DNA of 64,000 bases, taken from Elusimicrobiota bacterium (GTDB lineage: Bacteria; Elusimicrobiota; Elusimicrobia; UBA1565; UBA9628). A program made the position numbers and the translations under genes. Positions 5,500 through 56,512 of this stretch are shown one piece after another. The number at the start of each line of letters is the position of its first letter. Position 1 is the stretch's first letter. Under the pieces are notes generated by a model, which was not told the DNA's origin, did no database searches, and saw only the letters and a program-made list of their open reading frames with translations. The DNA lies in the NCBI GenBank assembly GCA_027451985.1, contig DAIDHS010000014.1, positions 1,748-65,747 on the forward strand. The letters run 5' to 3'.

Positions 5500-7152
5500 C
5501 TACTTGACGTCCTTGAGGTCCGCCATGTACTTCTGCGCGATGGTGCCGACCGCCAAGCGATAGTTGATCTCGGCCTGGGCCAGCGCGAGCGCGACGCCGT
5601 TGAGGCTTTGCTGCGCCTGCAGGGCCAAGTCTTGAGACTGCAGCACGCGGAAGGAATCGCTCAGGCCCAGACGCAGCCGTGCTTGCTCCTGCTCGAACTG
5701 CAGCCAGGACAGCCGCGCCGCAGCCTGGGCCACTTGGTAGCGCAAAGACTCGGTCTCAACGCCGCGCACGGCCGAGCGCACATCGAAGCGTACGGTGTTC
5801 TCCGTCCCTTGCAGCGCAAGTTCAGCCTGCTCCCGCGCGGCCTTGGCGGCGCGGTACTTGTCGATGTAGATGCGGTCACCGATGGGAATACTGAAGGCCC
5901 CCCCCACCGACCAAGCGTGGTCGCGGCCGTGCAGGGCGCCGGTAATGGCGTCGTTGAGCGCGCCCGGATCGCCGCTTTGGTTGCTGCCGCCGCTGGCCAA
6001 GGTGCCGGTGAAGTCAAGCTGAGGCAGAAGCGCGTTCCTGGCTTGGGCCAGGAAGGCGTTCTGCTCCGCCAGCACGCTGCGGGCCTGAGCGACGTCGGGG
6101 CGGAGCTTGAGCGCCATGGCCACGGCCTGAGAAAGCGGCGGCAACGTCGGAGCGGCCGCGGGCGCGCCGGTGGCTGTACCGATGGTGTAGCGCTCGTTAT
6201 CGAGCAGTTCCTGCACCTGCGCGCCGTAACAAAGGAAAATCAGATTATCCGCGTCGTCCTCACGGGTGCGCACGGCCTCCAAATAGGAGGTGCGCAGGAT
6301 TTCCACCTGCTCCTCCGAGGTCAGCGCGTCGTGCGCGGAGAGCAGGTTCAACTTGTTGAGCTCCTGGTTCTGGCGCATGATTTTTTCCGCGATGCGCAGG
6401 GACTTGAGCGTCACGGCCTCATTGCTCTCGTCTTGCCGAAGCGTCCAATAGCCGCTCTCGACCGCGGCCACCGTTTGCTGCAAAATGCGTTTGGACGCGG
6501 CCAGAGCCGCGTCGCCGCCCTCCTGCGCGATTTTGGCCGCGGCGAAAGCGGCGCTGCGCCCGAAACCCCGCAAAAGCGGCTGGGTGACGTCCAAGATGAC
6601 GCTTGAGTTGAACAGCGGCTGCGTGGGGGCGATCGAGTTCTCCTGCGTGCGCTGATTCTGCGCCGAAATGGAGAGCAGCGTGCCGATGGTGGTGTTTTTG
6701 TCGATTTTGAAAGTGGTGGTCTGGGAGTTGCTGTAGCTTTCCGCCGGAATCACGCCCGGCGTGTAAACGACGTGCTGGCCGATGTGGCTCTGCGAATAAT
6801 CGGCGCTGAAAACCGGATCGAAGGCGGCGACGTTCGCCTTGGCCCCGTAGCGCGCGTTGGCCAGGGCCGCCTCCGAGGCCAGGAAGCTCAGGTTGCGCGC
6901 GACCGCGACCTGGACCAGCGTCTCAAGCGGCACGCGCACGATAGTTTCATCGACGGTAAAGCGCGTCACCACGTCCGCGGTCGAAACCACCATCGCCGCG
7001 GCCTCCGCGGACAAGGTCGAGACGCTCAAGGCCGCGGATGGCGGCGCAGGAACTTTGGCCGCCGACCTGGCTGCGCGGGCTTGTCCGGGCGCGGCGCAAA
7101 GCAGAAGAGCCGCCGCAGCAATCAGAGCCTGAAGCTTCCCCCTCATGCTCAA
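5500..7152 (-). CDS. TolC-family outer membrane efflux protein
   Basis: 550 aa with signal peptide. Two-repeat coiled-coil/beta architecture, Ala/Gln/Leu-rich helical repeats, and a C-terminus typical of OEP family. ATGA overlap with the upstream ABC gene. Confidence 0.75.
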   Translation of the reverse strand: MSMRGKLQALIAAAALLLCAAPGQARAARSAAKVPAPPSAALSVSTLSAEAAAMVVSTADVVTRFTVDETIVRVPLETLVQVAVARNLSFLASEAALANARYGAKANVAAFDPVFSADYSQSHIGQHVVYTPGVIPAESYSNSQTTTFKIDKNTTIGTLLSISAQNQRTQENSIAPTQPLFNSSVILDVTQPLLRGFGRSAAFAAAKIAQEGGDAALAASKRILQQTVAAVESGYWTLRQDESNEAVTLKSLRIAEKIMRQNQELNKLNLLSAHDALTSEEQVEILRTSYLEAVRTREDDADNLIFLCYGAQVQELLDNERYTIGTATGAPAAAPTLPPLSQAVAMALKLRPDVAQARSVLAEQNAFLAQARNALLPQLDFTGTLASGGSNQSGDPGALNDAITGALHGRDHAWSVGGAFSIPIGDRIYIDKYRAAKAAREQAELALQGTENTVRFDVRSAVRGVETESLRYQVAQAAARLSWLQFEQEQARLRLGLSDSFRVLQSQDLALQAQQSLNGVALALAQAEINYRLAVGTIAQKYMADLKDVK

Positions 7153-9902
7153 GCCATCTGCCTCGATATGAGATCTTTAAAAAGGCCGGGCGTGTCGGCC
7201 AACGCGTCGAAAGTCCCTTCCTGCGCGATGCGGCCCTTATCGAGGACGATGACTCGATCAGCGTTGCGAATCGTGCTCAAGCGGTGCGCGATGACCACGC
7301 GCGTGACGTGCAAGGCATCCAGGCTCTTGGTCACCACTTCCTGCGTGGTGTTGTCCAGCGCGCTGGTGGCCTCGTCGAAATAAATCTTCTTGGGGCGCCG
7401 AGCCAAGGCTCGGGCGATCAAGAGGCGCTGGCGCTGGCCGCCCGACAAGGTCGAGGCGCCTTCGCTGATCAAGGTGAACATGCCCATGGGCATGTCGCGG
7501 ATGTCCTGCGCCACGCCGGCCAGCTCCGCCGCGGCCCAGGCGTCCTCCACACTCAAGGGCAGGCTGCCCACGATGTTGCGGTAGATGTCCCCGGCTAAGA
7601 GCCGGCCGTTTTGCAGCACCACGCCGATTTGCCGGCGGACTGAGCCGGCGTCGACTTTGGAAAGGTCCTGCCCGTCGTAATAAATGGATCCGATTTCGGG
7701 CGTCTCAAATCCCAGCAGAAGCCGCAGGATGGTCGACTTGCCCGATCCGGAGGGCCCCACCAGCGCCACGAACTCTCCGGGCTCGACGCGGAAGGACACG
7801 TCGTCAAGGACCTTGGGGCCGTCCGGGCGGTAGCGGAAGCTGACGTGGTTGACTTCTAGGCGCCCGCTCAAGGCCTTCGAGGCGGGCTTGGCCGAGTCCG
7901 CCTCTGGCAGCGTCTCCATGATGGGCTTGGCGTTTTTCCAGATGGGGATGACGTTCAAAATCGAAAAGGCCGTGCCGCTCAGGGAGATGCCGGCGTTTAA
8001 GAAGACCGTGAAAGCCGCCATGAAGGCGACAAAATCGCCCACCGAGAGCTTCAGGGGCGTCCCGCCGGCGGCCGGATGCATCTTCATATGCACCAACCAA
8101 AAGATTGCCGCGCTGGTGAACACCGGAATCATTGCGTTGAAGACCTGAATGAGATTGTCGTAGGCGTTGGCGGCGAAGGTGAGCTTGGTCGACTCGGCGT
8201 AGGACTTGCTCCACACCGCGAAGCCCCGGCGCTCGGCCGCGGCCACGCGGAGCTTTGAGATGCCGCCCAAAAGCTGGAAGACCAGCCCGGAAATCTTGTT
8301 GTCGAGGGCGGTGAGCTTGTAGCGCAGGCGCAGGGACATCCACAGACAGGCGCTATAGACCGCGACCGCGGCGGCCAGCATGCCGCAGGCGTAGAGCGCC
8401 AGGCCGGAGTCGTAGTAGAAAAGCAGGAAGAGGTTCAAGGCCGCGTGCAGGCTGTTGAGTACCGTCGTCATGACACTGCCGCTTAAGATCTGCTGGATGG
8501 AATTGACCGCGTTGGCGCGCTCGGCCAGTTCTCCCACGCTGTAGTCGCGAAAAAAAGGCACTGGCAGGCGCAAGAGCCTGTCCCAAAGCGCGGCCTGAAC
8601 CTCACCGTTGTACCTGCCGTTAATGCGCATCATGGCCACGCTTTGCGTCAGGCCGAAGAAAGCCGTAGCCAGCGCCGCCGCAACCAGGGCCAGCGTGTAC
8701 TGCATTAGGGCGCCGTACTCGGTGTTGGGGATGACCGTGTCGAAGAGCTTGCCCGTGACCCACGGGGCGGCCAGCCCCAGGACGGCGCCTGCTCCGGCCA
8801 TGAGTGCCAGCATCAGGAGATCGCCGCGCACTTCCTTGGCCACGAAACCCGCCACGTCCCGAAAGCGCACGACGGAATCCGGGAAGGGGCGGTAGAAGAC
8901 ATAGCCGAACGGCGAAAGGGAGCGCGCGGCCGCGGCGTCCACCGGGCGCCGCGAACCGTCCTCAGGATTAAAAATCTCGTAGGAGCCGGGCTTGACCGGC
9001 AGCAGGGCCACGGGCGGCCCGCAGAAATCACCATCGGGAGACGGCGGAGCGCCTAGCGCGGGAGCCGCCTCATCCGCGGGTTTTTCCGGAGCGGGCCCGC
9101 CCAAAGAGGCCAGAATAGGCCCGCAGTCGCTCTTCCACCAAGCCCCGCGCAAGGCGATGCGGCGCGAGCGCACGCGTGAGGCTTGACAGACGGCATCCAA
9201 GTAAAATCGGGGCGCGGGGTAGTCCGCGCGCCCGCCGGGATGAGAAAATTCGACGCCCATGGCTTCGCCCACCGCCAGCATGGCGCCGAAGAAGTGGTCG
9301 TCTTCGGGCGCGGCCAAGGCCGCGCCGGCCTTGGGCTCGATGATGCGGGCGAGGCGATTTAAGGCTGCGCGGTAAGCGCGCTCATCCGAAGCCTTGCGCC
9401 GCTCCAGACGTTTGGCGTCCTCAGCTTCGCCTTTTTCGGCCAAGTCCGCCAGGCGTTCCATCAATCCGTCTTGCAGGCTTAAAACCTGATCCAGAGCGGC
9501 CTCCTCCTCCGCGACCTTCGCGTCAGCCGATCCTGTCGGAGAGAAAGCGTCCGCCATGATTTGAAGGTAGAGTCTAAAATCCGCCGCGGCGCCCGCCGTC
9601 CCGGCGAACTCGCGCGCGTCTTGGCGGCGCACGGAGGCGCCCTGCCGCCCGACCGCGAGCAGGCTAAAGCCGCGCCGCGGCGGGGCACCCGCAAAAATAC
9701 GCCCGGCCGGAGCGGTGAAAACGTGCCGCCGCGGCCCCACAGGAACGCCGTTTTGGGCGCGCACGGCAAAGACGTCGACCTGGCCCGATTCGACCTTGTA
9801 AATCCAGCGCGCGTCGTCCAAGATGAGCGGGTGGTTGCCGGACAAAGACATTGCGGCCTGGGCTTCGTAGCTCATCTTATTGGCCCCCGGCCAAGCGAGC
9901 AT
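7149..9902 (-). CDS. NHLM-type bacteriocin export ABC transporter (permease+ATPase) with N-terminal cNMP-binding-like domain
   Basis: 917 aa. N-terminal beta-roll domain (ILDDARWIYKVESGQVDVFAV), six-helix permease domain, Walker A GPSGSGKST, signature LSGGQRQR, Walker B IYFDEATSALD. Confidence 0.8.
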   Translation of the reverse strand: MLAWPGANKMSYEAQAAMSLSGNHPLILDDARWIYKVESGQVDVFAVRAQNGVPVGPRRHVFTAPAGRIFAGAPPRRGFSLLAVGRQGASVRRQDAREFAGTAGAAADFRLYLQIMADAFSPTGSADAKVAEEEAALDQVLSLQDGLMERLADLAEKGEAEDAKRLERRKASDERAYRAALNRLARIIEPKAGAALAAPEDDHFFGAMLAVGEAMGVEFSHPGGRADYPAPRFYLDAVCQASRVRSRRIALRGAWWKSDCGPILASLGGPAPEKPADEAAPALGAPPSPDGDFCGPPVALLPVKPGSYEIFNPEDGSRRPVDAAAARSLSPFGYVFYRPFPDSVVRFRDVAGFVAKEVRGDLLMLALMAGAGAVLGLAAPWVTGKLFDTVIPNTEYGALMQYTLALVAAALATAFFGLTQSVAMMRINGRYNGEVQAALWDRLLRLPVPFFRDYSVGELAERANAVNSIQQILSGSVMTTVLNSLHAALNLFLLFYYDSGLALYACGMLAAAVAVYSACLWMSLRLRYKLTALDNKISGLVFQLLGGISKLRVAAAERRGFAVWSKSYAESTKLTFAANAYDNLIQVFNAMIPVFTSAAIFWLVHMKMHPAAGGTPLKLSVGDFVAFMAAFTVFLNAGISLSGTAFSILNVIPIWKNAKPIMETLPEADSAKPASKALSGRLEVNHVSFRYRPDGPKVLDDVSFRVEPGEFVALVGPSGSGKSTILRLLLGFETPEIGSIYYDGQDLSKVDAGSVRRQIGVVLQNGRLLAGDIYRNIVGSLPLSVEDAWAAAELAGVAQDIRDMPMGMFTLISEGASTLSGGQRQRLLIARALARRPKKIYFDEATSALDNTTQEVVTKSLDALHVTRVVIAHRLSTIRNADRVIVLDKGRIAQEGTFDALADTPGLFKDLISRQMA

Positions 9903-12057
9903 ACGCTCCGCCTTGGACTTTCAACTCGTCGTGGGTGCCGCGCTCGACCGTGCGGCCTTCCTCGAGCACGATGATTTCGTCCGCATCGCGCACGGTGCTA
10001 AGTCGGTGCGCGATGATGATGCAGGTGCAGCCGCGGCGGCGCAGGTTCTCGTCGATAGTTTTCTCCGTCACTGTGTCTAAGGCGCTGGTGGCCTCGTCCA
10101 AGACCAGCACGCGCGGGTTCAAGACCAAGGCGCGCGCGATTTCCAGGCGCTGGCGCTGGCCGCCGCTCAAATTGGCGCCGCCCTCCTCCAAAATCGCGTC
10201 GTAGCCGCCGACGCGCGCCACGATGTCGTTGTGGATGCAGGCGTCCTTGGCCGCGGCGACCATCTGTTCCTCGGGCACGGTGTCGTCCCAGAGGGTCAAG
10301 TTGTCTCGCACCGTCCCGGCGAAGAGCGCGATGTCTTGATCCACCAAGGCCACGGAGTTGGCCAGGATCTCGCGCGGAATGCTCGCGCGCGGCGTCCCGT
10401 CGAAAAGAATTTCCCCGCTCCAGGGCGGGTAGAGGCCCGTGACGATTTTGGAGATGGTCGACTTGCCGCAGCCGCTGGGGCCCACCAGCGCCACGCGGCT
10501 TCCGGGCTTCAACGACAGGCTGAAGTCCTCGATAAGCGGTTCCGAGAGCCGAGAGTAGCCGAAGCTCACGCCGCGCAACTCGACCTGGCCGGAGAGCTTG
10601 GCCGCGGGCGCGGCGCCGGATTTCTGCGCCGCCTCGTCCGCCGCCACATCCGCGTCCACAGGATAGGCCATGACGTCGTCAAGGCGGTTCATGTCGCCCT
10701 CGAATTCCTGGAAGGTGCCCATGAGCGCCACGCAGCGGTTGACCGGCTCGATGAAGCTGGCCATGAGGCTTTGGAAAGCGACCAAGAGGCCCAGAGTCAT
10801 GTGCCCGCGCATCACGCTCAAGCCTCCGAAAGCCAGGACCGCGGCCGTGGCCAGGGCCTGCAAAAGCGGCGGAATCTGTAGAAAGGGCTGCGTGACTTCG
10901 TTCAACTGCATGGTGAAGCTCACCAGCTTGGCCTGGTAACCGGCCCAAGTGGAGAAGAAATCCGACTCTCCCCCGGTCGCCTTCAGGGTCTCGATTGCCT
11001 GGAGCCCTCCCATGGACACGCCCATGAGCTTGCCCTGCTCGCGCACAAGGCGGCGGTTGCCGTCCACGCGCTTTCGCTGGATGGCGCGCGCGGCCGCGTA
11101 GTTGGCGCCCAGGGCGCCGACGGCGACCAAGGTCAAGAGCGGATTGATGGCGAACATCAGGGCGGCGTAGAAGATCACCATGACCGCGTCGACCGCGGCG
11201 CCGGCCATGTCCGCGGCCATGATGTGGGCCAGGCGCTTGTTGATGGCCACGCGGTTGGCGATGTCGCCTCCGAAGCGCTGGGAGTAGAAGTCCACGGGCA
11301 GGCGCAACACGTGCCATAGGAACTTGCCCGAGCCCGAAACCGAGAGCTTGGTCTCCAGGCGGTTGAGATAGTGCTTCTGCAACCAGGTGAGCGCACCGCG
11401 CATGACGGCGGTGATGAGCATGCCTAGAAGAAGGGGCTTGATCCAGTCCGTCATCTGGAGCACGAGGTAGTCATCTACGAAAATGCGGATGAATGTCGGG
11501 ATGACCAAGCCCGGCACTACCAGGGCCAGGCCCGCGATGACGATGTAGGAAAGCGCCTTCTTAGAGGACTCCATGCGCTGGCGCAGGCCCGGCCACAAGG
11601 AGGGCTTCACGCCGCCTTTCTTGAACTCGGGCCCCGGCTTAAAGGCCAGCGTCACGCCTGTGAAACACTCGTCGAACTCCTCATCCGAAACCGTCCGCGG
11701 CCCGGCCGCCGGATCGGCGAGATAGACGACGCCTTTACCGAAGCCCTCGACCACCAGGAAATGGTTGAAATTCCAGAAGACGATGAGCGGCATATCCATT
11801 TGGCGAAGTTCGGCGGGCTCCTTGCGGTAGCCCGTGGCCTCTAATCCATAAGTCCGCGCCGCGCGCAGGATGTTGCGCGCGTTGCTGCCGTCGCGCGAAA
11901 CGCCGCAGGCCTTGCGCAGTTCCTCGAGCGGGACGTAGCGCCCGAAATAGCCCAACACCATGGCCAAGGACGCGGCGCCGCACTCGACCGCCTCCATCTG
12001 CAGGACCGTCGGGACGCGGGCCCGGCGGAAGCTTTCGGATAATTTCAGGAGAGACAC
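9877..12057 (-). CDS. C39 peptidase-domain bacteriocin/lanthipeptide ABC transporter (LanT-like, double-glycine leader protease + exporter)
   Basis: 726 aa. N-terminal C39 domain with catalytic Cys in MEAVECGAASLAMVLGYFG, a permease domain, Walker A GPSGCGKST, LSGGQRQR, LVLDEATSALD. Confidence 0.85.
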   Translation of the reverse strand: MSLLKLSESFRRARVPTVLQMEAVECGAASLAMVLGYFGRYVPLEELRKACGVSRDGSNARNILRAARTYGLEATGYRKEPAELRQMDMPLIVFWNFNHFLVVEGFGKGVVYLADPAAGPRTVSDEEFDECFTGVTLAFKPGPEFKKGGVKPSLWPGLRQRMESSKKALSYIVIAGLALVVPGLVIPTFIRIFVDDYLVLQMTDWIKPLLLGMLITAVMRGALTWLQKHYLNRLETKLSVSGSGKFLWHVLRLPVDFYSQRFGGDIANRVAINKRLAHIMAADMAGAAVDAVMVIFYAALMFAINPLLTLVAVGALGANYAAARAIQRKRVDGNRRLVREQGKLMGVSMGGLQAIETLKATGGESDFFSTWAGYQAKLVSFTMQLNEVTQPFLQIPPLLQALATAAVLAFGGLSVMRGHMTLGLLVAFQSLMASFIEPVNRCVALMGTFQEFEGDMNRLDDVMAYPVDADVAADEAAQKSGAAPAAKLSGQVELRGVSFGYSRLSEPLIEDFSLSLKPGSRVALVGPSGCGKSTISKIVTGLYPPWSGEILFDGTPRASIPREILANSVALVDQDIALFAGTVRDNLTLWDDTVPEEQMVAAAKDACIHNDIVARVGGYDAILEEGGANLSGGQRQRLEIARALVLNPRVLVLDEATSALDTVTEKTIDENLRRRGCTCIIIAHRLSTVRDADEIIVLEEGRTVERGTHDELKVQGGAYARLAGGQ

Positions 12058-12064
12058 GGGGCGA

Positions 12065-13123
12065 TTAGAGCCCCAGCAGGGACTTCATCGCCGGGATGAC
12101 CAAGGTGATGGGGCGGCGCTTTTTGACGATGACGCGCACGTCGCACATCATGCCCGCCTTGATTTTCTGCTGCGGGCCGTCCGATGAGGACCAGCGGTAG
12201 CCGCTAAAATTATTGGGGTCCGCCTCCAGGGAGATACGCAGGATGTAGGGCGCGCCGCCGGAGGTGAGTTCCTGATCGAGGATATTGTTGCGGGTCAACT
12301 CGAAAATCATCTGCTCACGCGCGGGGAACTCGGAGACATAATAGACTTGGCCCTTCAAGTAGCCGTACTCTTCCTTCTTGATCGTGCGCGGCGAGACCTC
12401 CGCGGCCATGCCGGGCTTGGCCTGGTTGCCCACGCTCGGGATAAAGGCGATGGCGTTCAAAGACTGCTTCTCGCTGAAATAGGTCATGAGGAAAGCGCCT
12501 TTTTGGATGAGCGTGCCAGGCGAGGTCATGACTTCCACGATGCGCCCGCTCTTGGGCGCGATCACGTCCGTGGCTTCCTTCAACTCCATGCCGTTCAAGG
12601 CCAGCTGATTCTGGAGGGACTTGAGCTGGCTTTTGGCCTGGGCAAGGTTCTGCTTGGCGTTCTCCAGCACGTCTGGCGCGATGAGCCCCCCCTGCAGGGC
12701 CACCCGCATGGAGTCGACCTGGCGCTGCAGGCTACGCATGTGTTCCTGCGTGGCCGCGATCTTCTGGCTGATTTCCGCGTTCGAGCGGGCGCCGCGCTGC
12801 GCCATGTTGCTCTGATCCAGCGTCGCGACGACTTGTCCCTTTGTTACTGCGTCGCCTTCGCTGACGAAAATCTGCTTGACGATTCCGGTCCCGGGCGAGT
12901 AGATATTGTCCACGCCGCGGGGCGGCATGATGATGGCGGGACCGGAAATCGTCGTGGGAATGCTGCCGAAGACGGACCAGATGAGCGCTAAAGCGATGAG
13001 TCCGCAGAGCGTCCACAGGGCATACCAGCCCTTGGGTGTGGTCACCTGCATCAGGTAGTCTAGTTGCTCGGGAGAGGAGAGGCGTTCCAGAGAGGTTTTT
13101 CTAAAGATTTCCTGCTCGGCCAT
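12065..13123 (-). CDS. HlyD-family membrane fusion / NHLM bacteriocin secretion protein
   Basis: 352 aa. An N-terminal TM helix (WYALWTLCGLIALALIWSVF), a long coiled-coil (LQRQVDSMRVALQ...LKSLQNQLALN) and a C-terminal beta-barrel domain. Confidence 0.8.
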   Translation of the reverse strand: MAEQEIFRKTSLERLSSPEQLDYLMQVTTPKGWYALWTLCGLIALALIWSVFGSIPTTISGPAIIMPPRGVDNIYSPGTGIVKQIFVSEGDAVTKGQVVATLDQSNMAQRGARSNAEISQKIAATQEHMRSLQRQVDSMRVALQGGLIAPDVLENAKQNLAQAKSQLKSLQNQLALNGMELKEATDVIAPKSGRIVEVMTSPGTLIQKGAFLMTYFSEKQSLNAIAFIPSVGNQAKPGMAAEVSPRTIKKEEYGYLKGQVYYVSEFPAREQMIFELTRNNILDQELTSGGAPYILRISLEADPNNFSGYRWSSSDGPQQKIKAGMMCDVRVIVKKRRPITLVIPAMKSLLGL

Positions 13124-13155: not shown

Positions 13156-16100
13156 TCAAGCGAAGATTTCGACCTCGGGGAGTCCCTTTTGCAAAAAACG
13201 CGCGGCCGCGTAGCCGACGCCCGATTGACCCTGAAAAAATCCAGGGGTGGGCAGGCCCGCATCGAAGCCCAGGCGCAGGGCGCCTCGCTCGGTGCGGGAC
13301 GCCACGAGCGCGATGTCTCGCCGCGCCCACCGCGCCAAATTATCGTCTTTAAGAGCCTCTGCGGCGCGCTTTAAAAAAAGAGCGACGCCCACCTTGCCGC
13401 AGCACAAGTGATCGACGGGAGGCTCATCCGCGTGGCGCCAAGCCGCCGTGGCGGCTTGGCGCACGCTCAGCGAAAAATCGACACCCAGAAGCCGGCCCGT
13501 TTCCAAAAGCCCAAGACCCACGCCCGCCGCTCCGCCGCACCAGCTGGAGACAAAGCGCGGTTTGTCTCCCTGCCCGAAATCGCGCCAGTCCGGCCAGCCG
13601 CCCGCCTCGGCGTCGTAGCGCGCGGCGCAAAGCTCGGCCAAGTCGCGGGCCGCGGCGGCCCACGGGCCACCGCGCTTGGCCATGCGCGCGCAGACGTAGG
13701 CCGCGCCCGCCGCGCCGTGCGCTAAGCCCAATTCCGGACGCGCGTTTCGGCGCGACGCGGCCGCGCTGAAGAGCTCCCGGCTCGCCGCCAGAAATTCTTT
13801 CGAGAGCTCCTCGCGGCGACGCTCGATTTCGCCCGCGAGCGCGGCGGGAAGCCCCTGCGGCAGGACCTCCAGCGCCAAAAGAGCGCCCGGGATTCCCCCC
13901 AGCAGGTCCGCTCGGCGCGCGTCCTCCAGAGACAGGTATTTGGGCGAAAGCGCCGCCGCCAGATGGGCCGCGTCCAGGACTAGAGATTCATCTTTCAGGA
14001 TGCGGCCGATAGCCGATAAGCCGTAGGGCAAGGAGGCCGCGCCCGTGCCCACGCCCAGGCCCATGATGCGCACCATCCGCTCCATGCCGTATCGCTGCGC
14101 GTCGCGGGCGGCGAGCTTGGCCGTGGCCAGGGCCGTGCGGCGGGCGCGCTCGTGCCCCCCGACGGCGTGGGCCGCGGCCAGGAAAAGGGAAATGCCCATC
14201 GCCCCGTCGAAAAGCCGGCCGCCCACGGGACCGTACTGCCAGTTGCGCGAACGTTCGTCGTAGCACAGGGACAGCCACCAAGCCTCGTCGTTTTCCGCCA
14301 TCAGGGCGCCGTCTAAGATGCCGTCGGCCAGGCGTAAAATCACGCTCTTAAGCGTCTCCGGCGAGGCGTCGGCCTCTTCGGCGCCCTCCGGAGCGGACTT
14401 CCCCTGCGCCGCTTTGGGCATAAAAAAGCTCGCGCGCAGGAACTGCCTTTGCCGGGATAAATCAGGCTCGCCCAGCGCGGACAAGCGCCCGCGGACCAGG
14501 TCCAGCGGCGCTTCGTTCATCGTCAGAATCCGCCGCCCGCCGCAAGACGCGTACGCCCGGCCCGGCGCCGTTTTAAAAACCGGAACGTCCCGGTAAGACA
14601 ACGTCGCGATTTCCTCAACGGCGCACAAGCCGAGGCCCCGCCGCTCTTCCTCGTCTTCCACGCCGGAGAGCGCCCGCCACAAGGGCTCGAACACCAAGCC
14701 ATGGGCCGCGCCGTCCTTGAGCGCCGCGGGCTCCAGAGACTTTTGCAGCAGGTGGGCGTAGACCTTGGTGTTGCGCAGGATAAAGCGGGTCGGGATATCC
14801 CGGAGAGGCTCGAGCGCGGCGGAAGCGGCTTCGCGGATCTCGGGATGCAGAGCCTGGCCATAGGCCTCGGTAAAGCCCGTTTCGATGTCGTCTAGATAAT
14901 CGGCCGCGGCGACGGGCCGGCCGTTTAAAAGCGGTTTGTTCGCGCTGGGCGGGGCGGCCGTCCGGACCTTGGCCACGCGCATGCGGTCGCGGTTGGGAAA
15001 TTGCCACGCCAGGACTTCTCCCGATTCGCCCGCGCTTCCCCCCGCCAATCCGCTCGACTCCAAAACCCGGTCGCCGCCCAAAAACTCGTAGCGGGGCAGA
15101 AGCGCCGTGCGCACGACCGATTCAAAGAAGAAGCGGTGCAGCGCCAAGTTGGACGCGCCAAAGGCGTCCGCTCCCATACGCGGCCTCGGGCAGCACACGG
15201 TCTCCAAATCGATGGGATAAGGCCCCGCGGCGGTCGCGACGATGTTCTCGTGATGCAGGTCCGAGGCGCCCAGCAGGTACATGTGGAAGAGCAGCTCTCC
15301 CGCCGCCTTGAAATATCTCCGGACTTCGACCTCGGTTTTAAAATCGGCGCGGCGGGCAAATTCGCAGTAGCCGTAGCCGTCGCGGCCCAGTACGCGCAGG
15401 CGACCTAAGCTTGAGGCAAAACCCGCGGCGCCGATGCCGTCCAAGTAGGCGCCAAACCACGCCTCGGCCGCCAATGATTTGGGCTTATAAAGGAAGCGTG
15501 CGCCGCCTTCCGATTCCAGCACGGCCACGGTCTTTCCGCCCTCGTGCGGATCCGAGACGCCGAATTGGACGTGCCGCGCGCGCGCGGGCGCGCCTCCCAC
15601 GACGAAGAGCCGGACGACTTCCGGCCAATCCTCGGTCAAACGGGAAACGAACAGGGTCATGTTCCTGCGCCAATTTTCCAGCAAAACGGCCATGACGCGC
15701 AGAAGGACCGGGTATTCCCCGAAGAAAGCCCGGAAGCCGTCTTCCTGAAATTTAAGGATGAAGGCGCGGAAAGCGGCGTCTGACTCCGCGTCGAAACCGG
15801 AGAGGCTTTCGCCCTCCAGGTTTTTAAAAACGGCGAACTCAGCCGCGAGGCAATAGGCCGAAACGCCGCACAAGTTGTTGAGTAGATCGTGCCGTAAATC
15901 GTCCCAGGCCTCCGCCGCCAGCGGAGCCTCGGGAACAGCCGCCGCGCAAGAGCTCTGAAGACGCGCAAGCTCGTGATGCGTCAGGGCCGACCAGACGGGG
16001 CCAAACGCCACGTCCGCGTCGGGCAAAACGGCTCCGCTTTGCGAATTTCTCAGCACGCCGGAGAAAAACTCGACGATGTCCACAGCTGCGGGGACCCAGC

Positions 16101-16299
16101 GTTCGTCATCAGGAGGCGATCCGCCGAAGGCTTTGCGCTGTTCCAAAAGTCCGGGAGTGAGCGGATCGATGGCCACGCGCCATGCCTCCACGTCCAGGCC
16201 CCGCGCGCCGTCGGCCGAAAGCCGCTCGGACAAAAGGCGCGCTTTGGGTAGAAGCGCCTGAACGAAGGCTTCCGGCGGGGCGAAGGACGCGGCGCTCAC
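13156..16299 (-). CDS. class II lanthipeptide synthetase LanM (ProcM-like, CCG zinc motif)
   Basis: The DUF4135 dehydratase domain carries the conserved DLHHENIV. The C-terminal LanC-like cyclase has GLAHGAAG, SWCGGAAG (WCxG) and HLCCGKVG (CCG instead of CHG). The start is set at the GTG overlapping the upstream TGA stop (GTGA at 16296-16299); the first 207 codons of ORF 13156..16917 overlap the JmjC gene in another frame and hold no Met. Confidence 0.85.
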   Translation of the reverse strand: MSAASFAPPEAFVQALLPKARLLSERLSADGARGLDVEAWRVAIDPLTPGLLEQRKAFGGSPPDDERWVPAAVDIVEFFSGVLRNSQSGAVLPDADVAFGPVWSALTHHELARLQSSCAAAVPEAPLAAEAWDDLRHDLLNNLCGVSAYCLAAEFAVFKNLEGESLSGFDAESDAAFRAFILKFQEDGFRAFFGEYPVLLRVMAVLLENWRRNMTLFVSRLTEDWPEVVRLFVVGGAPARARHVQFGVSDPHEGGKTVAVLESEGGARFLYKPKSLAAEAWFGAYLDGIGAAGFASSLGRLRVLGRDGYGYCEFARRADFKTEVEVRRYFKAAGELLFHMYLLGASDLHHENIVATAAGPYPIDLETVCCPRPRMGADAFGASNLALHRFFFESVVRTALLPRYEFLGGDRVLESSGLAGGSAGESGEVLAWQFPNRDRMRVAKVRTAAPPSANKPLLNGRPVAAADYLDDIETGFTEAYGQALHPEIREAASAALEPLRDIPTRFILRNTKVYAHLLQKSLEPAALKDGAAHGLVFEPLWRALSGVEDEEERRGLGLCAVEEIATLSYRDVPVFKTAPGRAYASCGGRRILTMNEAPLDLVRGRLSALGEPDLSRQRQFLRASFFMPKAAQGKSAPEGAEEADASPETLKSVILRLADGILDGALMAENDEAWWLSLCYDERSRNWQYGPVGGRLFDGAMGISLFLAAAHAVGGHERARRTALATAKLAARDAQRYGMERMVRIMGLGVGTGAASLPYGLSAIGRILKDESLVLDAAHLAAALSPKYLSLEDARRADLLGGIPGALLALEVLPQGLPAALAGEIERRREELSKEFLAASRELFSAAASRRNARPELGLAHGAAGAAYVCARMAKRGGPWAAAARDLAELCAARYDAEAGGWPDWRDFGQGDKPRFVSSWCGGAAGVGLGLLETGRLLGVDFSLSVRQAATAAWRHADEPPVDHLCCGKVGVALFLKRAAEALKDDNLARWARRDIALVASRTERGALRLGFDAGLPTPGFFQGQSGVGYAAARFLQKGLPEVEIFA

Positions 16300-17027
16300 G
16301 CCTCCTCCCGGCGCAGACGCCACGCCTGCGGGTCGTCCGCGATCGCATCCAGAAATGCGGAGAGGTTCGTGTGGTTGACGAAGTTGAAGCTCAAAGTCAC
16401 GGAAGGCTCGAGGCTGCGCGCGGAGTGCACCTGCCCGGCGGGCACGAGCAGCACGTCGCCGGGCTCCAGATCCGCTCTCTTGACCGCGGACCGCGCCTTT
16501 TCTCCGGCCGGGCCGTGCAGGCTTACGCACTTGCGGCCGATGATTTGCGCGAGCCAGGCGTGCGTGGAAAACAAATCCGTGTGCGGCAAAGTCTCGGTCC
16601 CTGCGGGGCCGATGAAAAGCCAGCCGAACTTCTTCAAATACCACTCCTTGTCCGCGGGGGAGCGGAAATCGAGCAGCGTGCGGCAGAACTCCGGAAAAGC
16701 GAAGTCCTCCAGCAGCTCGGGGTGCTTCGCGAAAGGAGAATATTGCAGGGTATACCAGCGCGGCTCGCTCTCGGGTCCGGCGCCGCCTAAAATCCAATCG
16801 ATGAAGCCGGCCAGAAGCACTTTCTTGCCGCGCTTGGTTCCGCCGATGTTGTCGCCCACGACCAACTCGTCTTGCCCCAGCGCCTCGCGCAAAAAATCCC
16901 AGGTCCAGCGCCCGCACGCCCGCCAGTGCTTGGCGTAGCCTTTAAAGAGCGCCGGCGCGCCCGGAGAAGCGAGCAGCGCGCGCTCGGCCTCCTCTGCGGA
17001 AATGCCCTCTTTGAAAACGCGGATCAT
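16296..17027 (-). CDS. JmjC/cupin-type Fe(II)/2-oxoglutarate-dependent oxygenase (putative peptide hydroxylase)
   Basis: 243 aa from the internal Met MIRVFKEG. An HxD...H triad is visible (LPHTDLFSTHAW ... AGQVHSA) in a beta-roll context. ATGA overlap with the upstream gene; its stop overlaps the LanM GTG. Confidence 0.6.
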   Translation of the reverse strand: MIRVFKEGISAEEAERALLASPGAPALFKGYAKHWRACGRWTWDFLREALGQDELVVGDNIGGTKRGKKVLLAGFIDWILGGAGPESEPRWYTLQYSPFAKHPELLEDFAFPEFCRTLLDFRSPADKEWYLKKFGWLFIGPAGTETLPHTDLFSTHAWLAQIIGRKCVSLHGPAGEKARSAVKRADLEPGDVLLVPAGQVHSARSLEPSVTLSFNFVNHTNLSAFLDAIADDPQAWRLRREEA

Positions 17028-17926
17028 GACGGCGCGGCGGCGGAAAGGGCGGAGCGGCGGCGGATCTCCGCCCCGAAGCGATCCGTCAAGACGCCCGAGA
17101 GCCTCTCCAGCAGCCGGTCGCACAGATCTCGCGGAGTGTAGCCCGAAATGCGCGAGAGGCTGATGCCGATGAACCGGCAGTCCATATCCGAGCTTTTAAG
17201 CCACGCGGCGAAGCGATCCAGGCGCGCGAAGGCTTCCTCGTCCGTGGCCGTGCGGCCCTCGCCGCGCCCCTCCGAACGACCGAAGACCAGCAGGTGCCGT
17301 CCGTCGGGCGAGATCGTGGGGCTGACCGGAGCGCCGGGGGAAATGCGCAGAAGATGATACGGGTTGCTCTTAAAGCTTTCAAACTCGCCCGCGGTGACCT
17401 CAAGAGCGACCGGAGCGCGGTCCGGAGTCAGGTTGCAGGAGAAATAGTCCAGGCAGACGTCGAGCGCGACCGGGCCTTGCGGGCGGATGTCGGAAAGAGC
17501 CTTGACCCGAGCGAAGCGCGCCTGGGCGGCGTCCGGCTTGCCTTCCAATTCGGGCGGCAGCGGCCCTTTGGCCCAGACCATGGCGCGGCGCGCCGGATCA
17601 GTCGTGAAAACGCAGACCGGGCCGTCGTAGGGGATCGTGGCCTCGTGCTCGCGGTGCCACCACACCTCGCCGAAGAGGCCGTGAAGCATGGCCGGCCAGA
17701 TGAAGTTGGCGATGTTGAGCTCCTTCAAGACGAAGGCGCGTGTCTCCGCGAGGCCCGCTTCCGGCTTGAGCATCGGGCCCTGCAGCGTGGGCAAGTCCAT
17801 GTCCGAGTGCTCGTCGATGTGGACCAAGGAACTGCCCCGCGCGGGAAGGACGCCCCTGACGGCGGCCTCCTTCCAGAAGTAGAACGCCTCGTGGTGCTCC
17901 TCGAAAACGACGCAGGAGACGGGCAT
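17024..17926 (-). CDS. UPF0489-like (C5orf22-like) domain protein, function unknown
   Basis: 300 aa from MPVSCVVFEEHHEAFYFW. The motif block VFEEHHE...LVHIDEHSDMD resembles UPF0489 as I recall it, with low certainty. TGATG overlap with the upstream GNAT. Confidence 0.4.
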   Translation of the reverse strand: MPVSCVVFEEHHEAFYFWKEAAVRGVLPARGSSLVHIDEHSDMDLPTLQGPMLKPEAGLAETRAFVLKELNIANFIWPAMLHGLFGEVWWHREHEATIPYDGPVCVFTTDPARRAMVWAKGPLPPELEGKPDAAQARFARVKALSDIRPQGPVALDVCLDYFSCNLTPDRAPVALEVTAGEFESFKSNPYHLLRISPGAPVSPTISPDGRHLLVFGRSEGRGEGRTATDEEAFARLDRFAAWLKSSDMDCRFIGISLSRISGYTPRDLCDRLLERLSGVLTDRFGAEIRRRSALSAAAPS

Positions 17927-18858
17927 CAGCTCCGCGCGGGGGCGAGCAGGACTTCGAGCCCGCGCAAAGTCCAGGTCCTGTCCAGGCAGGGCACCAAGTG
18001 CTTGTTCAAGGAGCGCAGCCACTCGGGATATTCCAGCGGCACGTCGAACTCGGCGCAGCTGGGCGAACCTTTTTTCAAAAACATCTGGTAATGCGCGTTC
18101 ATGGCCGCGCGCAGGAGAAGCACGGCCGCGGCGCGGTGGCGCGAGGCGAAGTCCGGCTCGACCCAGAACTTGGTGTAGTAGAGCGTGTCCGGCTTCTCCG
18201 CGAAGCGGTGGGTCGCGAACCAGCCCTTGGCCTCGTCGCCCGCAAACAGCATCTGGCTCGTCTCCCAGTCGAGCTCACTTTGCCTAAAGCGCACGCCCAG
18301 GTGGGCCGGACCCCCGGCGCGCGAACCCCGCTCGATGGGGTCAAGCCCCTCGACGCGGGCTTTGGCCCAGGAAATCACGCGCCAATCGGCGGTCGAGGAT
18401 TCCCCCGCCCCCTTGGCCCAGCGCGGGATGTTCGCGATGCGGCTCTGTCCGAAGAAGATGCGCGTAAAAGGCGTCCCGTAGCCCGCCTTGATGATGGTCT
18501 TTTCCGCGGCTTCCAAGCCCGTGATGCGGCTGCCGTAATTCAAGGAAAGCCGCTCAAGATCAGGGGCGCGGGAAAGCTCTTCCCTCAAGCGGCGCAGCAA
18601 CGCGGCGCCGAGGCCTTGCCGGCGATATTCCGGCGCGACGTAGACGGAAAGCAGTTCGGCCCTATGCTCCGCGGCAATGAGACCGGCCAGAGCCAAGCCC
18701 TGCGGCTCGCCGCCTAAAGTCCGCGCGGCCGCGGCCAGCCAGGGAAATTCCTTCTTCGCGGCGCCTTCGGCGTAGGACGGGTAAGTGAGACCGGCCCAAG
18801 GGGCGAAGTCGGCTTCGGCGTTAAGGATGGAAATTTCGGAATCTAAAGCGGCGTTCAC
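17926..18858 (-). CDS. GNAT family N-acetyltransferase with C-terminal extension
   Basis: 310 aa. GNAT motif A is LSVYVAPEYRRQGLGAALLRRL. A C-terminal ~170 aa domain is of unknown function. Confidence 0.55.
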   Translation of the reverse strand: MNAALDSEISILNAEADFAPWAGLTYPSYAEGAAKKEFPWLAAAARTLGGEPQGLALAGLIAAEHRAELLSVYVAPEYRRQGLGAALLRRLREELSRAPDLERLSLNYGSRITGLEAAEKTIIKAGYGTPFTRIFFGQSRIANIPRWAKGAGESSTADWRVISWAKARVEGLDPIERGSRAGGPAHLGVRFRQSELDWETSQMLFAGDEAKGWFATHRFAEKPDTLYYTKFWVEPDFASRHRAAAVLLLRAAMNAHYQMFLKKGSPSCAEFDVPLEYPEWLRSLNKHLVPCLDRTWTLRGLEVLLAPARS

Positions 18859-18950
18859 GGGAGAAATCTCGGATTGGGGCTTTGCGCTCCGGAGCGCGGC
18901 CGAACTGCTCCGCGCCCCGGAGCGATGCCGTTTTAATTTTTCGGCCGAAA

Positions 18951-19331: not shown

Positions 19332-19694
19332 TTAAACGCAGGCTCCACCCACTCCCGGCACGTACGTAGGCCCCGGAGGCACCGTGGACGAAACCAGGCA
19401 GACCTGGCTGATACCGCAGCTTCCCGCGCAGCGTCCTCCCGCGACCTTCTCGAGTTCGCTGTCCGAGAGCTCGCCGCCCGCCTTGACCAGGTCGGGAACC
19501 ACAAGCACCATGTCCGCGCCGTCCCTCGCCACCGCCGCGACCTTAAAGCCCGCCGGCAGATCCTTGCCGGAGACTTCCTTGACCGCCGCGGCCGGATTCT
19601 TGAGCGCCAACTCGCGGAATTTCGCGTCCGTCGAGGCCTTGCGTGCGAACGCCTCCAAAGCCTTTTTCTTTTCGTCCTGCGTCCAAGGTTTCAT
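19332..19694 (-). CDS. lanthipeptide precursor A2 with NHLP-type leader
   Basis: 120 aa. The leader is almost identical to A1 and ends ...SDSELEKVAGG. The predicted core is RCAGSCGISQVCLVSSTVPPGPTYVPGVGGACV, with 4 Cys and 6 Ser/Thr. The ATG overlaps the upstream gene's stop (ATGA). Confidence 0.8.
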   Translation of the reverse strand: MKPWTQDEKKKALEAFARKASTDAKFRELALKNPAAAVKEVSGKDLPAGFKVAAVARDGADMVLVVPDLVKAGGELSDSELEKVAGGRCAGSCGISQVCLVSSTVPPGPTYVPGVGGACV

Positions 19695-20449
19695 GCGATT
19701 TTCTCCTTTCCCTCGAAAGCCGCGCGCGTCTCGCCGACGGCGGCAAGTTCCACGCGCAGATTAAAATTATCCGGAAGATGCCGCCCCATTATCCGGGCGG
19801 CGGCGCCGCGCGGATCGGACAAGAAGCGCCCCTTAAAGTCCGGCCGGGCCGCGGCGCGTTTCAAGACGGTTCGGCGTAGGCATTGGATTTCGAATTCGTT
19901 CGGAGGCGGCGCGGGCGGAAACACCTCGCCCTCGCCCAGCACGGTGATGCGCGCCGCCAAGGCCTGCCGCCAGCACTCGCGCGCGGCGGCGAGAACGTCC
20001 GCGAAATCCCGGACCGGCGCCAGCGGCGCGGCTTTCGCACCCGAATCGGCCACCAGGGCGCCGTAGCAGGCGAGCGCTTCCCGGAGCTTTTGAAGTTCAG
20101 CGCCACTAACGTCCGCGCCCAACGCACGCGCATCGAACGCCACGCATCGGGTGCGCGGCGCCGGAATGAAAACGGGGACGCAGGTCGCGCCGACGAACTC
20201 GGTCTCCATCAAATCAAAAAGAAATTCCCCGGCCCGGACGTCGAAAAGTTTGTGCCGCCGGATGAAGACGCCGCTTTCGGGATGGCGCCGCGCCAGAAAC
20301 AGGCTGAGGCGGCCCTCCAAGACAAGCCACGCGCGGCCCGGGGAGCCACACTGAACGTAGGGAACCCCGCCGGGGAGTTCTTGTCCGACGGCCTCGATGC
20401 GTTGCTCCAAGGTCCCGGGCTCCACTGTCATCTTAGAGGATGCTATCAT
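19691..20449 (-). CDS. cyclic-nucleotide-binding-like (beta-roll) domain protein, standalone
   Basis: 252 aa from MIASSKMTVEPG (SD-like aaaaagagaaat upstream). The N-terminal domain LVLEGRLSLFLARRHPESGVFIRRHKLFDVRAGEFLFDL resembles a cNMP-binding fold. The stop overlaps the A2 start. Confidence 0.45.
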   Translation of the reverse strand: MIASSKMTVEPGTLEQRIEAVGQELPGGVPYVQCGSPGRAWLVLEGRLSLFLARRHPESGVFIRRHKLFDVRAGEFLFDLMETEFVGATCVPVFIPAPRTRCVAFDARALGADVSGAELQKLREALACYGALVADSGAKAAPLAPVRDFADVLAAARECWRQALAARITVLGEGEVFPPAPPPNEFEIQCLRRTVLKRAAARPDFKGRFLSDPRGAAARIMGRHLPDNFNLRVELAAVGETRAAFEGKEKIA

Positions 20450-20468
20450 ATTTCTCTTTTTCGTCGTT

Positions 20469-21497
20469 TTAGCGGCCAAAAAAAGCACGAGCCGCAATCG
20501 CATTACAGATCAGATACGCGACGGGATAGAGCGCGCGGGAAGCGGAGCGCACGCGCGCCGCAGTCCGGGACGAGCGCGCTTGGGCCGCGCGATGAACCAC
20601 GACGATTTCCACTATGGACAACGCGGAAAAGACGAAGCAAATGAGGAAGAACGCGTCGATGTAGGTCAGATACGGTAGGTGCGGCAGGCTGCCCGAGATG
20701 ACGAACAAGAAGGCCACCATCGTCAGCGTGGCGCTCAAGGCCACGGAGAACTGAGCCGCCACGTCAGTCTCATTGATCCACAAGGCGCAGTAGGACACGA
20801 TGACCATGATAAAGAGCGGCAGGAACACCTTCCATATATAGTAGCCGTAGCGGCGCTTGATGAGCATGTTAAAGTCGATTTCTGGGATGCTGCCGCCCTT
20901 GCCGCCCAGCACCGACTCCGCGGGCACGGCCTTCATGCCGAGCATCTTCCACTGCGCCAGAAGCGCCCAAGGCTGGCTATTGATGCCGGTCTGCCCCGGG
21001 TCGGGGATGGGATTGACCACGTCCCGCTCATCGAGGAACGGCTGGATGACCACGGGCAGGACCTGCTCGTCGAAGGGAAAACGGTGGAAGCTCATCTGCA
21101 TGGTGAGGTCGTCCTCGAAGTCCTCCCAGAAAACCACCGTGCCGTCGGGCTTGCGCCGGACGTTGGTGCCCAGCTTGAAGAGCCCGTTGACGGCGTTGGC
21201 CATGATGACGTTGGGCGTCCAGATTTTAGCCGGATCGCAGAGCCGATCTTTGTCCTTGGGGCCGCGCGGAACGTACTTGAGTCGAGGATCCTTCCACTGC
21301 TCATAGAGGTATCCCCGGATGCGGAAGGTCTGCGCGACCTCGTCGACGCCCACCAAGTCGGTCACGTAGACGCCTACTTTGACAGGCACGCGCCCGCCGC
21401 TGGACGGCGGAGGAGGAGGAATTTGACGGGCCGAAGCCCGAAGCCCCGTGGACAGAAGAGGAATCAGGAGCGTAACGGCAATTGCGGTGCGCTTCAT
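20469..21497 (-). CDS. prokaryotic pentameric (Cys-loop family) ligand-gated ion channel homologue
   Basis: 342 aa. Signal peptide, ~200 aa beta-rich extracellular domain, then pre-M1/M1 RRYGYYIWKVFLPLFIMVIVSYCALWI (GLIC/ELIC-like R-x-Y..LP..F....S..A.W), M2 SVALSATLTMVAFLFVISGSLP, M3 and a short M4. Confidence 0.7.
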   Translation of the reverse strand: MKRTAIAVTLLIPLLSTGLRASARQIPPPPPSSGGRVPVKVGVYVTDLVGVDEVAQTFRIRGYLYEQWKDPRLKYVPRGPKDKDRLCDPAKIWTPNVIMANAVNGLFKLGTNVRRKPDGTVVFWEDFEDDLTMQMSFHRFPFDEQVLPVVIQPFLDERDVVNPIPDPGQTGINSQPWALLAQWKMLGMKAVPAESVLGGKGGSIPEIDFNMLIKRRYGYYIWKVFLPLFIMVIVSYCALWINETDVAAQFSVALSATLTMVAFLFVISGSLPHLPYLTYIDAFFLICFVFSALSIVEIVVVHRAAQARSSRTAARVRSASRALYPVAYLICNAIAARAFFGR

Positions 21498-23890: not shown

Positions 23891-24333
23891 CAAAGAACCT
23901 CCGTTCTCCCCTCGATAAAGCTGCGTCCGTCCTCGGATCGCCGCCACACCCGCAAGTCCCCTGCGCCTGCCGCCGTCATCGCGACGATCAAGTAGGCGTA
24001 GGCGGGCCAAGCGCGCTGCAAATCAAAAGGCGACGGCCACGCAGGGGCGTCGGGATGTGAGTGGTAAATGCCCACGATGCCGCGGGGTTGACCCGAAAAT
24101 TCCTTCTCGACCGCGGCCCAGGCCTGCGGGTCCATCTCGTAGCGATCGTTTTTTCTTTGCGGGTTGGCCATATTTTTGAGCGGCCGAGCGTCCAGGACGC
24201 GCACGTCCGATTCGGGATCGCCGAAGCCGGAGGAGATGTCGCCGATTAAAAGCCCGCAGCCTTCCTCGGGATAAGTTTCGCGCACGTGATCTTGAATGGC
24301 CTTCATGACCGCGTTCGGAATAAAGAGCGTCAC
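23890..24333 (-). CDS. JAMM/MPN+ metalloprotease (Mec+-like)
   Basis: JAMM motif EEGCGLL ... HSHPDAPAWPSPFD (E-x(n)-HxH-x7-S-x2-D). Start is either the GTG overlapping the cysM TGA (GTGA, 147 aa) or the ATG at 24306 (138 aa). Confidence 0.75.
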   Translation of the reverse strand: MTLFIPNAVMKAIQDHVRETYPEEGCGLLIGDISSGFGDPESDVRVLDARPLKNMANPQRKNDRYEMDPQAWAAVEKEFSGQPRGIVGIYHSHPDAPAWPSPFDLQRAWPAYAYLIVAMTAAGAGDLRVWRRSEDGRSFIEGRTEVL

Positions 24334-54554: not shown

Positions 54555-54577
54555 GAATGCCTCGCAGTTTAAGAGTC

Positions 54578-54784
54578 TTAGAAAAATGTTCGAACCGTAG
54601 TTTTCAGCGCCTTTGCCAACCGAAGCATGGTTTTAAGCGAAATGTTGCGCCGACCACGCTCCACCAAGCTTATGTAGGTCCGATGAAGGCCGGCTAATTC
54701 GGCAAGACGCTCCTGAGAAACGCCCCGCCCCCTACGAAGGGCACGAAGTTTTTTCCCGAACCGAGCAAGATCCGTGTTTGACAT
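54578..54784 (-). CDS. R-M controller (C) protein, XRE-type helix-turn-helix
   Basis: 68 aa from MSNTDLARFGKKLRALRRGRGVSQERLAELAGLHRTYISLVERGRRNISLKTMLRLAKAL. The HTH is canonical and the gene lies upstream of the REase. Confidence 0.6.
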   Translation of the reverse strand: MSNTDLARFGKKLRALRRGRGVSQERLAELAGLHRTYISLVERGRRNISLKTMLRLAKALKTTVRTFF

Positions 54785-54807
54785 TATTGTTGATGGAACC
54801 AAATGGC

Positions 54808-54833
54808 AGACTAACAGTCTACAGACTATGAGC
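54808..54833 (-). promoter_or_regulatory. C-box operator (GACT-N3-AGTC type) upstream of C gene
   Basis: AGACTaacAGTCT followed 2 bp later by AGACTatgAGC. This matches the tandem GACT-N3-AGTC C-box architecture of C.PvuII-like systems. Confidence 0.5.
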
Positions 54834-54884
54834 AACGTTACGGTGGTGAAAAAGCATCGTTCAAGTTGCTATACTAGGCTAAAC

Positions 54885-56018: not shown

Positions 56019-56029
56019 GCGCCTCCACC

Positions 56030-56467: not shown

Positions 56468-56512
56468 GACCTCCCCTAGGGAACTTTTTCGCAAACCACT
56501 CGTAGTATAGCC

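Follow-up and report, generated by a model that had tools for sequence, protein, structure and literature searches.

A probable phaeornamide-type selidamide cluster with paired lanthipeptide precursors in an Elusimicrobiota bacterium

Introduction

Selidamides, described by Hubrich et al. 2022, are side-chain-lipidated lanthipeptides, and only three of their pathways (ksp, pha, and npu) have been characterised, with a hydroxylase in pha only. In the pha system of Pseudophaeobacter arcticus DSM 23566, PhaR converts one Arg of the precursor PhaA to ornithine, the Fe(II)/2-oxoglutarate enzyme PhaI hydroxylates the ornithine, PhaN places 3-hydroxydecanoate on the ornithine delta-amine, and PhaM makes the methyllanthionine ring (PMC8784127). 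Hydroxylation was seen only on ornithine-containing species, and acylation needed the arginase (PMC8784127); the ring of phaeornamide joins Cys4 and Thr7 (PMC11621775). Here, these systems were compared with a locus in a 64,000-nt stretch of DNA (the window) from an Elusimicrobiota bacterium (GCA_027451985.1, contig DAIDHS010000014.1, positions 1,748–65,747), in which genes for a GNAT acyltransferase, a PF12640 protein, and a JmjC/cupin oxygenase run into a gene for a class II lanthipeptide synthetase (LanM). On this comparison, the locus most probably forms the tailoring part of a selidamide cluster of the phaeornamide type. An earlier, sequence-only reading of the same DNA had implied Arg or Pro hydroxylation or a new reaction; the locus is instead a distant relative of the known pha system, not new chemistry, and its three tailoring genes are the known PhaN/PhaR/PhaI set.

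OspR, from the landornamide pathway, is a PF12640 member and a Mn-dependent peptide arginase that converts Arg to ornithine, and its crystal structure is available (8BRP; PMC10028609). The peptide arginase family is marked by the motifs EEH(N/H)EAF, DxHxD, and LDIDLDYFSC, with six His/Asp ligands and a binuclear Mn centre; in the OspR ligand list used for comparison, Asp165 bridges both Mn ions (PMC10028609). The enzymology of pha was drawn from PMC8784127, PMC13647313, and PMC11621775.

Comparison of the Locus with Described Systems

The pha locus was found by a profile search with the hydroxylase, in which the 90% cluster of a representative held P. arcticus proteins. PhaN was also obtained through the hydroxylase, by exhaustive profile search, inspection of 90% cluster members, and contig look-up; a word-indexed protein search with the GNAT itself returned 5 close relatives only and did not reach PhaN. 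The retrieved comparison loci carry L numbers, and L088 is the pha locus.

Comparative analysis showed that pha and the window share the gene order A-N-R-I-M (precursor, GNAT, arginase, hydroxylase, and LanM) and that all five products are homologous. As in the window, the N-R and R-I junctions of pha overlap in the DNA, with a further 4-nt overlap between its I and M genes as called. An NHLP leader ending in VAGG and a C39-ABC/ABC/HlyD export set are common to both loci. The PhaA core, GRSCTVTIM, begins with Gly-Arg like that of the window precursor A1, with Arg at position 2 in both, and its C-x-x-S/T spacing after Arg is that of R-C-x-x-S in both window cores.

The two systems also differed in several respects. 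Enzyme identities were only 24–33%. One precursor, with a core of 9 aa and one ring, is present in pha, whereas the window has two, with cores of 18 and 33 aa; the first ring position is Thr in pha and Ser in the window. The bridging Asp is kept in PhaR but is a Cys in the window arginase, and the export genes lie upstream in pha but downstream in the window. The pha locus is from a roseobacter, whereas the closest named genome to the window locus is an Elusimicrobiota metagenome-assembled genome (MAG).

The kamptornamide system of Kamptonema sp. PCC 6506 (KspA/N/R/M) resembled the window in its NHLP precursor, GNAT, PF12640 arginase, and LanM, and its acylation on the most N-terminal ornithine is like that predicted for the window. 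It differed in having no hydroxylase, in cores that start RRR with several Arg converted, in gene order, and in an arginase of the canonical Asp type. A ksp-like locus of a Kamptonema sp. MAG (L015, 11050–19387) encodes a GNAT, an arginase, a LanM, and five NHLP precursors, each with a core that opens with RRR; it is related to the kamptornamide cluster but expanded.

Tailoring Genes and Their Products

The three genes were linked to each other and to lanM by overlaps that were read in the DNA, as the sequence-only reading had stated. At the TGATG junction of the GNAT and PF12640 genes, the stop TGA (17928–17926) and the next ATG (17926–17924) have one base in common. The PF12640 and cupin genes overlap by ATGA at 17027–17024, and the cupin gene and lanM by GTGA at 16299–16296; the GTG start of LanM is inferred, and a matching 4-nt overlap was called in L001 and pha. 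Third-position GC was about 0.8 in the three open reading frames (ORFs; 16296–18858, minus strand), and since they also have database homologues, they are genes rather than chance ORFs. The view of the trio as tailoring enzymes coupled to LanM holds.

The product of the second gene matched PF12640 at 2.8e-15, above the cutoff, and the NCBIfam model "peptide arginase" (NF052474) at 4.4e-50. It matched OspR in the PDB (8BRP) at E = 1.6e-30 and PhaR with 29% identity over 308 aa (E = 5e-31). This protein had been taken for a UPF0489-like protein with no assigned function; its family, PF12640, is that of the peptide arginases (PMC10028609), and by this homology it is predicted to turn the core Arg into ornithine and urea. 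The window arginase has the motifs EEHHEAF, HIDEHSD, and LDVCLDYFSC, and it shares with OspR the fold family, the EEH(H/N)EAF and DxHxD motifs, and, by prediction, NHLP substrates. Five of the six metal ligands are kept (H11, D38, H40, D42, and D160), as is the Glu; the sixth is Cys158 in place of OspR Asp165, so that LDIDIDYFSC in OspR corresponds to LDVCLDYFSC in the window.

The Cys variant, noted in the window and in L001, L008, L009, L026, L033, L036, and L042, was present in 8 of the 83 aligned locus arginases and in 11 of the 74 aligned database-search sequences, with the window protein counted along with a second copy identical to it. It occurred only in hydroxylase-linked arginases, with the hydroxylase gene directly after the arginase gene wherever the context was known. 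Three Cys-type branches have, besides the Cys, a new Asp (Asp44) two residues past DxHxD, which suggests remodelling of the metal site and disfavours decay. As a constant compensation for Cys158, Asp44 was rejected, for it fails in Nisaea, P0016, P0021, P0079, and P0080. A decayed, inactive arginase was likewise rejected, given the five kept ligands and the conservation of the Cys across lineages 30–36% identical. An internal argument for arginase activity comes from the substrate: with Lys missing from the cores and the leader covering the N-terminus, ornithine would be the only amine open to the conserved GNAT. A tblastn search of plasmids with the arginase found nothing. A genome-contig scan with the arginase alignment missed P. 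arcticus, whose PhaR motifs (EEHNEAL and HVDQHQD) lie outside the two scan patterns.

The product of the third gene matched Cupin_8 (PF13621, 2.9e-14) and JmjC_2 (PF08007, 1e-5). It shared 33% identity with PhaI over 252 aa (E = 2e-44), and the PhaI cluster matched the hydroxylase family profile at 6.7e-65. The HxD...H triad (H149, D151, and H201) and K166 were invariant in nine homologues. The AlphaFold2 model had a pLDDT of 87, and a Foldseek search with it, a check that the sequence-only reading had proposed, gave the JmjC hydroxylases JMJD5, JMJD6, and JMJD7 as the best PDB folds (JMJD5: E = 1.9e-17, TM-score 0.71); the nearest solved relatives by sequence were also of this group. The assignment as a JmjC-type Fe(II)/2-oxoglutarate oxygenase with an HxD..H motif was confirmed in this way. 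K166 aligns with JMJD5 Lys336 (K336), the 2-oxoglutarate ligand of that enzyme. The window enzyme shares with JMJD5/6/7, the human Arg/Lys side-chain hydroxylases, the double-stranded beta-helix fold (TM-score about 0.7), the triad, the aligned Lys, and, by prediction, basic peptide side chains as substrates. These proteins differ from it in being eukaryotic, about 20% identical, and active on other substrates, and they share its superfamily but are not orthologues. Its homology to PhaI makes ornithine derived from Arg the most likely substrate of the hydroxylase. A CinX-like Asp hydroxylase was rejected on the lack of Asp in the cores and the homology of the enzyme to PhaI and JMJD5/6, with no direct alignment to the CinX sequence itself; the likeness to CinX that had been drawn holds for gene position only.

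The GNAT matched PF00583 (9.6e-12) over residues 18–107 only, with the motif RRQGLG at residues 79–84. It shared 24% identity with PhaN over 237 aa (BLASTP E = 4e-14), and hhalign gave a probability of 96.8% over 226 columns; its best score was against the GNAT of the ksp-like Kamptonema MAG locus, with 6e-22 in phmmer and a probability of 98.9% over 226 columns in hhalign. The full-length alignment takes in 16 cluster-linked GNATs, and the window gene has the same operon position as PhaN in pha. The GNAT is expected to act before leader removal and to move a fatty acyl group onto the delta-amine of (hydroxy)ornithine. Export signals have been reported to be lacking in KspN and PhaN.

LanM scored 557 bits against TIGR03897 (cutoff 304), with DUF4135 and LANC_like domains, and shared 29% identity with PhaM over 1057 aa (E = 1e-82). 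It has the motifs GLAHG, WCGG, and LCCG. At residues ~860–972 it carries a ProcM-type CCG zinc-ligand motif (HLCCGK), a motif tied to LanM enzymes that process many different substrates.

Precursors and Cores

The A1 core after VAGG is GRCGASCGGSSACVMMSM (18 aa), with Arg at core position 2, and the A2 core after VAGG is RCAGSCGISQVCLVSSTVPPGPTYVPGVGGACV (33 aa), with Arg at core position 1. The leaders of A1 and A2 were identical at 76 of 87 positions. Both precursors fell just under the TIGR03793 cutoff of 50.9 bits (A1: 7.4e-13, 48 bits; A2: 1.4e-12, 47 bits). A1 shared 51% identity with PhaA over 89 aa (E = 5e-31), and A2 shared 48%. As had been noted, Asp, Asn, Lys, and His are missing from both cores. 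Arg occurs once in each, Pro is found only in A2, and the number of Cys is 3–4.

"Short" cores (15–21 aa) and "long" cores (29–33 aa) co-occurred in all nine RC-type loci examined (L001, L008, L009, L012, L013, L016, L036, L042, and L052). Both types are built on R-C-x-x-S/T-C, with one LanM per locus, and the tail of the long core is conserved (...STV..G.PGVGG..C). The two may form a two-peptide system. In the cores of related loci, an Arg directly before C-x-x-S/T-C was conserved at core positions 1 to 7 past Gly-Gly, which supports Arg as the modification site; the long core has no Arg in the two gammaproteobacterial loci.

Distribution of the Cassette

The trio was kept in orthologous as well as distant clusters; its absence from orthologous clusters, which the sequence-only reading had named as a refutation of its view, was not observed. 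Near-orthologous metagenome contigs (~80% identity) keep the precursors, N, R, I, M, and the export genes in the same order, and so does the closest named genome, the Elusimicrobiota MAG with L008, whose arginase is 83% identical. Among species-representative genomes, 11 of 80 arginase loci had the hydroxylase gene immediately after that of the arginase. Seven of these 11 also had the GNAT directly upstream and LanM directly downstream (L008, Caulobacteraceae, Acidobacteriota L016, Nisaea, Chromatocurvus, Pseudohaliea rubra, and Alteromonadaceae). LanM was elsewhere in the locus in Opitutales and two Vicinamibacteria loci, the latter with the GNAT also elsewhere, and the Acidobacteriota locus L011 had no LanM match. 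Beyond the window, the cassette was present in a minimum of 10 genomes or MAGs, whose labels span five phyla. In a neighbour-joining tree, the hydroxylase-linked arginases and PhaR formed one clade.

Proposed Pathway and Alternative Explanations

Every chemical step, the order of the steps, the identity of the acyl chain, and the ring topology proposed here were inferred by homology to pha. Two NHLP-leader precursors would be made, and in the cytoplasm, with the leader attached, the PF12640 arginase would hydrolyse the core Arg (Arg2 of A1 and Arg1 of A2) to ornithine. The JmjC Fe(II)/2-oxoglutarate enzyme would then hydroxylate the resulting ornithine side chain, and the GNAT would acylate the ornithine delta-amine, the acyl group being most likely a medium-chain fatty acyl drawn from primary metabolism. 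This order is proposed because hydroxylation in pha was confined to ornithine species and acylation there was arginase-dependent. LanM would dehydrate Ser/Thr and form thioether rings, largely independently of the other steps, and one of these, a small ring between Cys(i) and Ser(i+3), would probably follow the modified residue directly, like the Cys4-Thr7 ring of phaeornamide. The C39-ABC/ABC/HlyD/TolC system would cut after Gly-Gly and export the product.

Several points weigh against this pathway. The cluster is known from genes alone, and from a MAG. The match of the arginase to NF052474 is below the cutoff (171 vs. 350 bits), the model having been built for the FlmR/OhkR subgroup, and the Mn-bridging Asp is replaced by Cys158, whereas the verified PhaR keeps Asp. 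The identity between the GNAT and PhaN is low, at only 24%, the C-terminal 200 residues of the GNAT have no Pfam match, and its AlphaFold2 model, built on a 5-sequence alignment, is poor (pLDDT 54, with the C-terminal half below 50). The acyl donor and the acyl chain are unpredictable from sequence, and the related GNAT NpuN also transfers acetyl (C2:0) in vitro (PMC13647313).

The non-canonical metal site leaves some room for the scheme of the sequence-only reading, in which the JmjC enzyme would hydroxylate Arg or Pro directly, the GNAT would N-acetylate the mature N-terminus, and the UPF0489 protein would have another role. The arginyl C3-hydroxylase activity of JMJD5, which gave the best structural match, also fits this scheme, as does the fact that GNATs are most often acetyltransferases. 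However, the PF12640 protein, a homologue of the verified arginases OspR and PhaR, has kept the arginase motifs, and the pha pathway showed hydroxylation of ornithine species only and acylation that depended on the arginase (PMC8784127). Neither A1 nor the other short cores listed contain Pro, and the N-terminus arises only at C39 export, which disfavours intracellular action of the GNAT there. This explanation is considered very improbable. What remains of the Arg or Pro hydroxylation is that the single core Arg is the relevant residue; homology to PhaI makes direct action on Arg or Pro less likely than action on ornithine. N-acetylation of the mature N-terminus is not expected, as the PhaN/KspN-like homology points to acylation of the ornithine side chain.

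The pathway could also run as proposed with an acetyl group added by the GNAT, giving an N-delta-acetyl-hydroxyornithine lanthipeptide rather than a lipopeptide. Only a generic acetyl/acyl-CoA binding motif is recognisable in the GNAT, the acetyl transfer by NpuN is in keeping with this possibility, and no fatty-acid activation gene is evident beside the window cluster, whereas an AMP-binding gene lies beside phaM. Against it stand the three characterised members of the GNAT clade (KspN, PhaN, and NpuN), all of which move C10–C16 acyl groups selectively in vivo (PMC8784127), and the alignment of the window GNAT over its full length (~300 aa) with two-lobed enzymes, not just with acetyltransferases of ~150 aa. 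An acetylated product therefore appears unlikely, though slightly less so than direct Arg or Pro hydroxylation, and ornithine acylation with a fatty acyl group is preferred.

A broader interpretation, held only tentatively, combines several features of the locus: it would represent a distinct, widespread selidamide subfamily with a two-peptide system and, in part of it, a remodelled arginase metal site. A short and a long lanthipeptide may both be processed by a single ProcM-like LanM, and in most loci both peptides may carry an N-terminal acyl-(hydroxy)ornithine by a small C-x-x-S ring. The Cys in place of the bridging Asp could reflect a change of metal or of substrate order, e.g., hydroxy-Arg.

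Gene Organization of the Window

The features of the cluster are listed in Table 1. The C39-ABC exporter is predicted to cut the leader after Gly-Gly during export, and the TolC-like protein probably completes the export system; an OEP gene occupies the position of the TolC-like gene in L001 and L002.

Table 1. Features of the predicted selidamide cluster, with positions in the window.
Feature	Coordinates	Strand	Description
Precursor A2, 120 aa	19332..19694	-	87-aa NHLP leader ending VAGG, "long" core RCAGSCGISQVCLVSSTVPPGPTYVPGVGGACV
Precursor A1, 105 aa	18951..19268	-	NHLP leader, "short" core GRCGASCGGSSACVMMSM
GC-rich hairpin, 15 bp	18887..18925	-	Between last precursor gene and GNAT gene
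GNAT acyltransferase, 310 aa, GTG start	17926..18858	-	PhaN/KspN homologue
Peptide arginase (predicted), 300 aa, PF12640	17024..17926	-	PhaR/OspR homologue
JmjC/cupin Fe(II)/2-oxoglutarate hydroxylase, 243 aa	16296..17027	-	PhaI homologue
LanM, class II lanthipeptide synthetase, 1047 aa, GTG start inferred	13156..16299	-	TIGR03897 6.6e-167
NHLP-bacteriocin-system HlyD-type membrane fusion protein	12065..13123	-	TIGR03794 2.8e-83, above cutoff
ABC exporter with N-terminal C39 peptidase	9877..12057	-	TIGR03796 1100 bits vs. cutoff 853; PF03412 1.1e-36
Second NHLP-system ABC permease/ATPase subunit	7149..9902	-	TIGR03797 883 bits vs. cutoff 709
TolC-like outer-membrane factor	5500..7152	-	PF02321 2.4e-31

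The hairpin had a folding free energy (dG) of -41.8 kcal/mol (z = -2.76), a value reached by none of 200 shuffles, and a hairpin with a different stem sequence was found at the equivalent place in L001, L008, and pha (after phaA). It is likely an attenuator or an mRNA-stabilising element that sets the precursor-to-enzyme ratio. A scan for an operon promoter and terminator gave nothing above background.

Just upstream of the precursors lies a conserved ORF of 270 aa (19691–20503, minus strand) without a Pfam match, of which residues 209–251 weakly resemble an NHLP leader (TIGR03793, E = 0.001). At the equivalent position, L008 has a weakly similar ORF and L003 an unannotated 228-aa gene; the product may be an accessory or leader-mimic protein. 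A homologue of prokaryotic pentameric ligand-gated ion channels (Neur_chan_LBD + Neur_chan_memb; 20469–21497, minus strand) directly adjoins the cluster, and its synteny extends to L001 and L003. After the TolC-like gene, on the minus strand, are genes for a class-A beta-lactamase-like protein (2977–4284) and a papain-family C1 cysteine protease (4386–5381); whether these two are cluster members, e.g., for trimming or immunity, is unclear.

Elsewhere in the window, a ThiS-ThiF-rhodanese fusion adjoins a pyridoxal phosphate-dependent (PALP) enzyme (22448–25268, minus strand), which looks like a sulfur-carrier-dependent biosynthetic pair. At 53847–56678 lies a low-GC island (GC 0.49 vs. ~0.65 elsewhere) that is probably an acquired restriction-modification module; in it, two ORFs without family matches flank a C5 cytosine DNA methylase gene (54774–56018, plus strand).

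Implications

Across genomes and MAGs with labels from five phyla, the GNAT-arginase-hydroxylase-LanM cassette behaves as a mobile module that has been conserved. It is joined here to larger, multi-ring paired cores, and its products may include new lipopeptide antibiotics or surfactants. It also supplies natural variants of two enzymes under development as peptide-engineering tools, namely acyltransferases with a possibly new chain-length preference and the Cys-site arginase.

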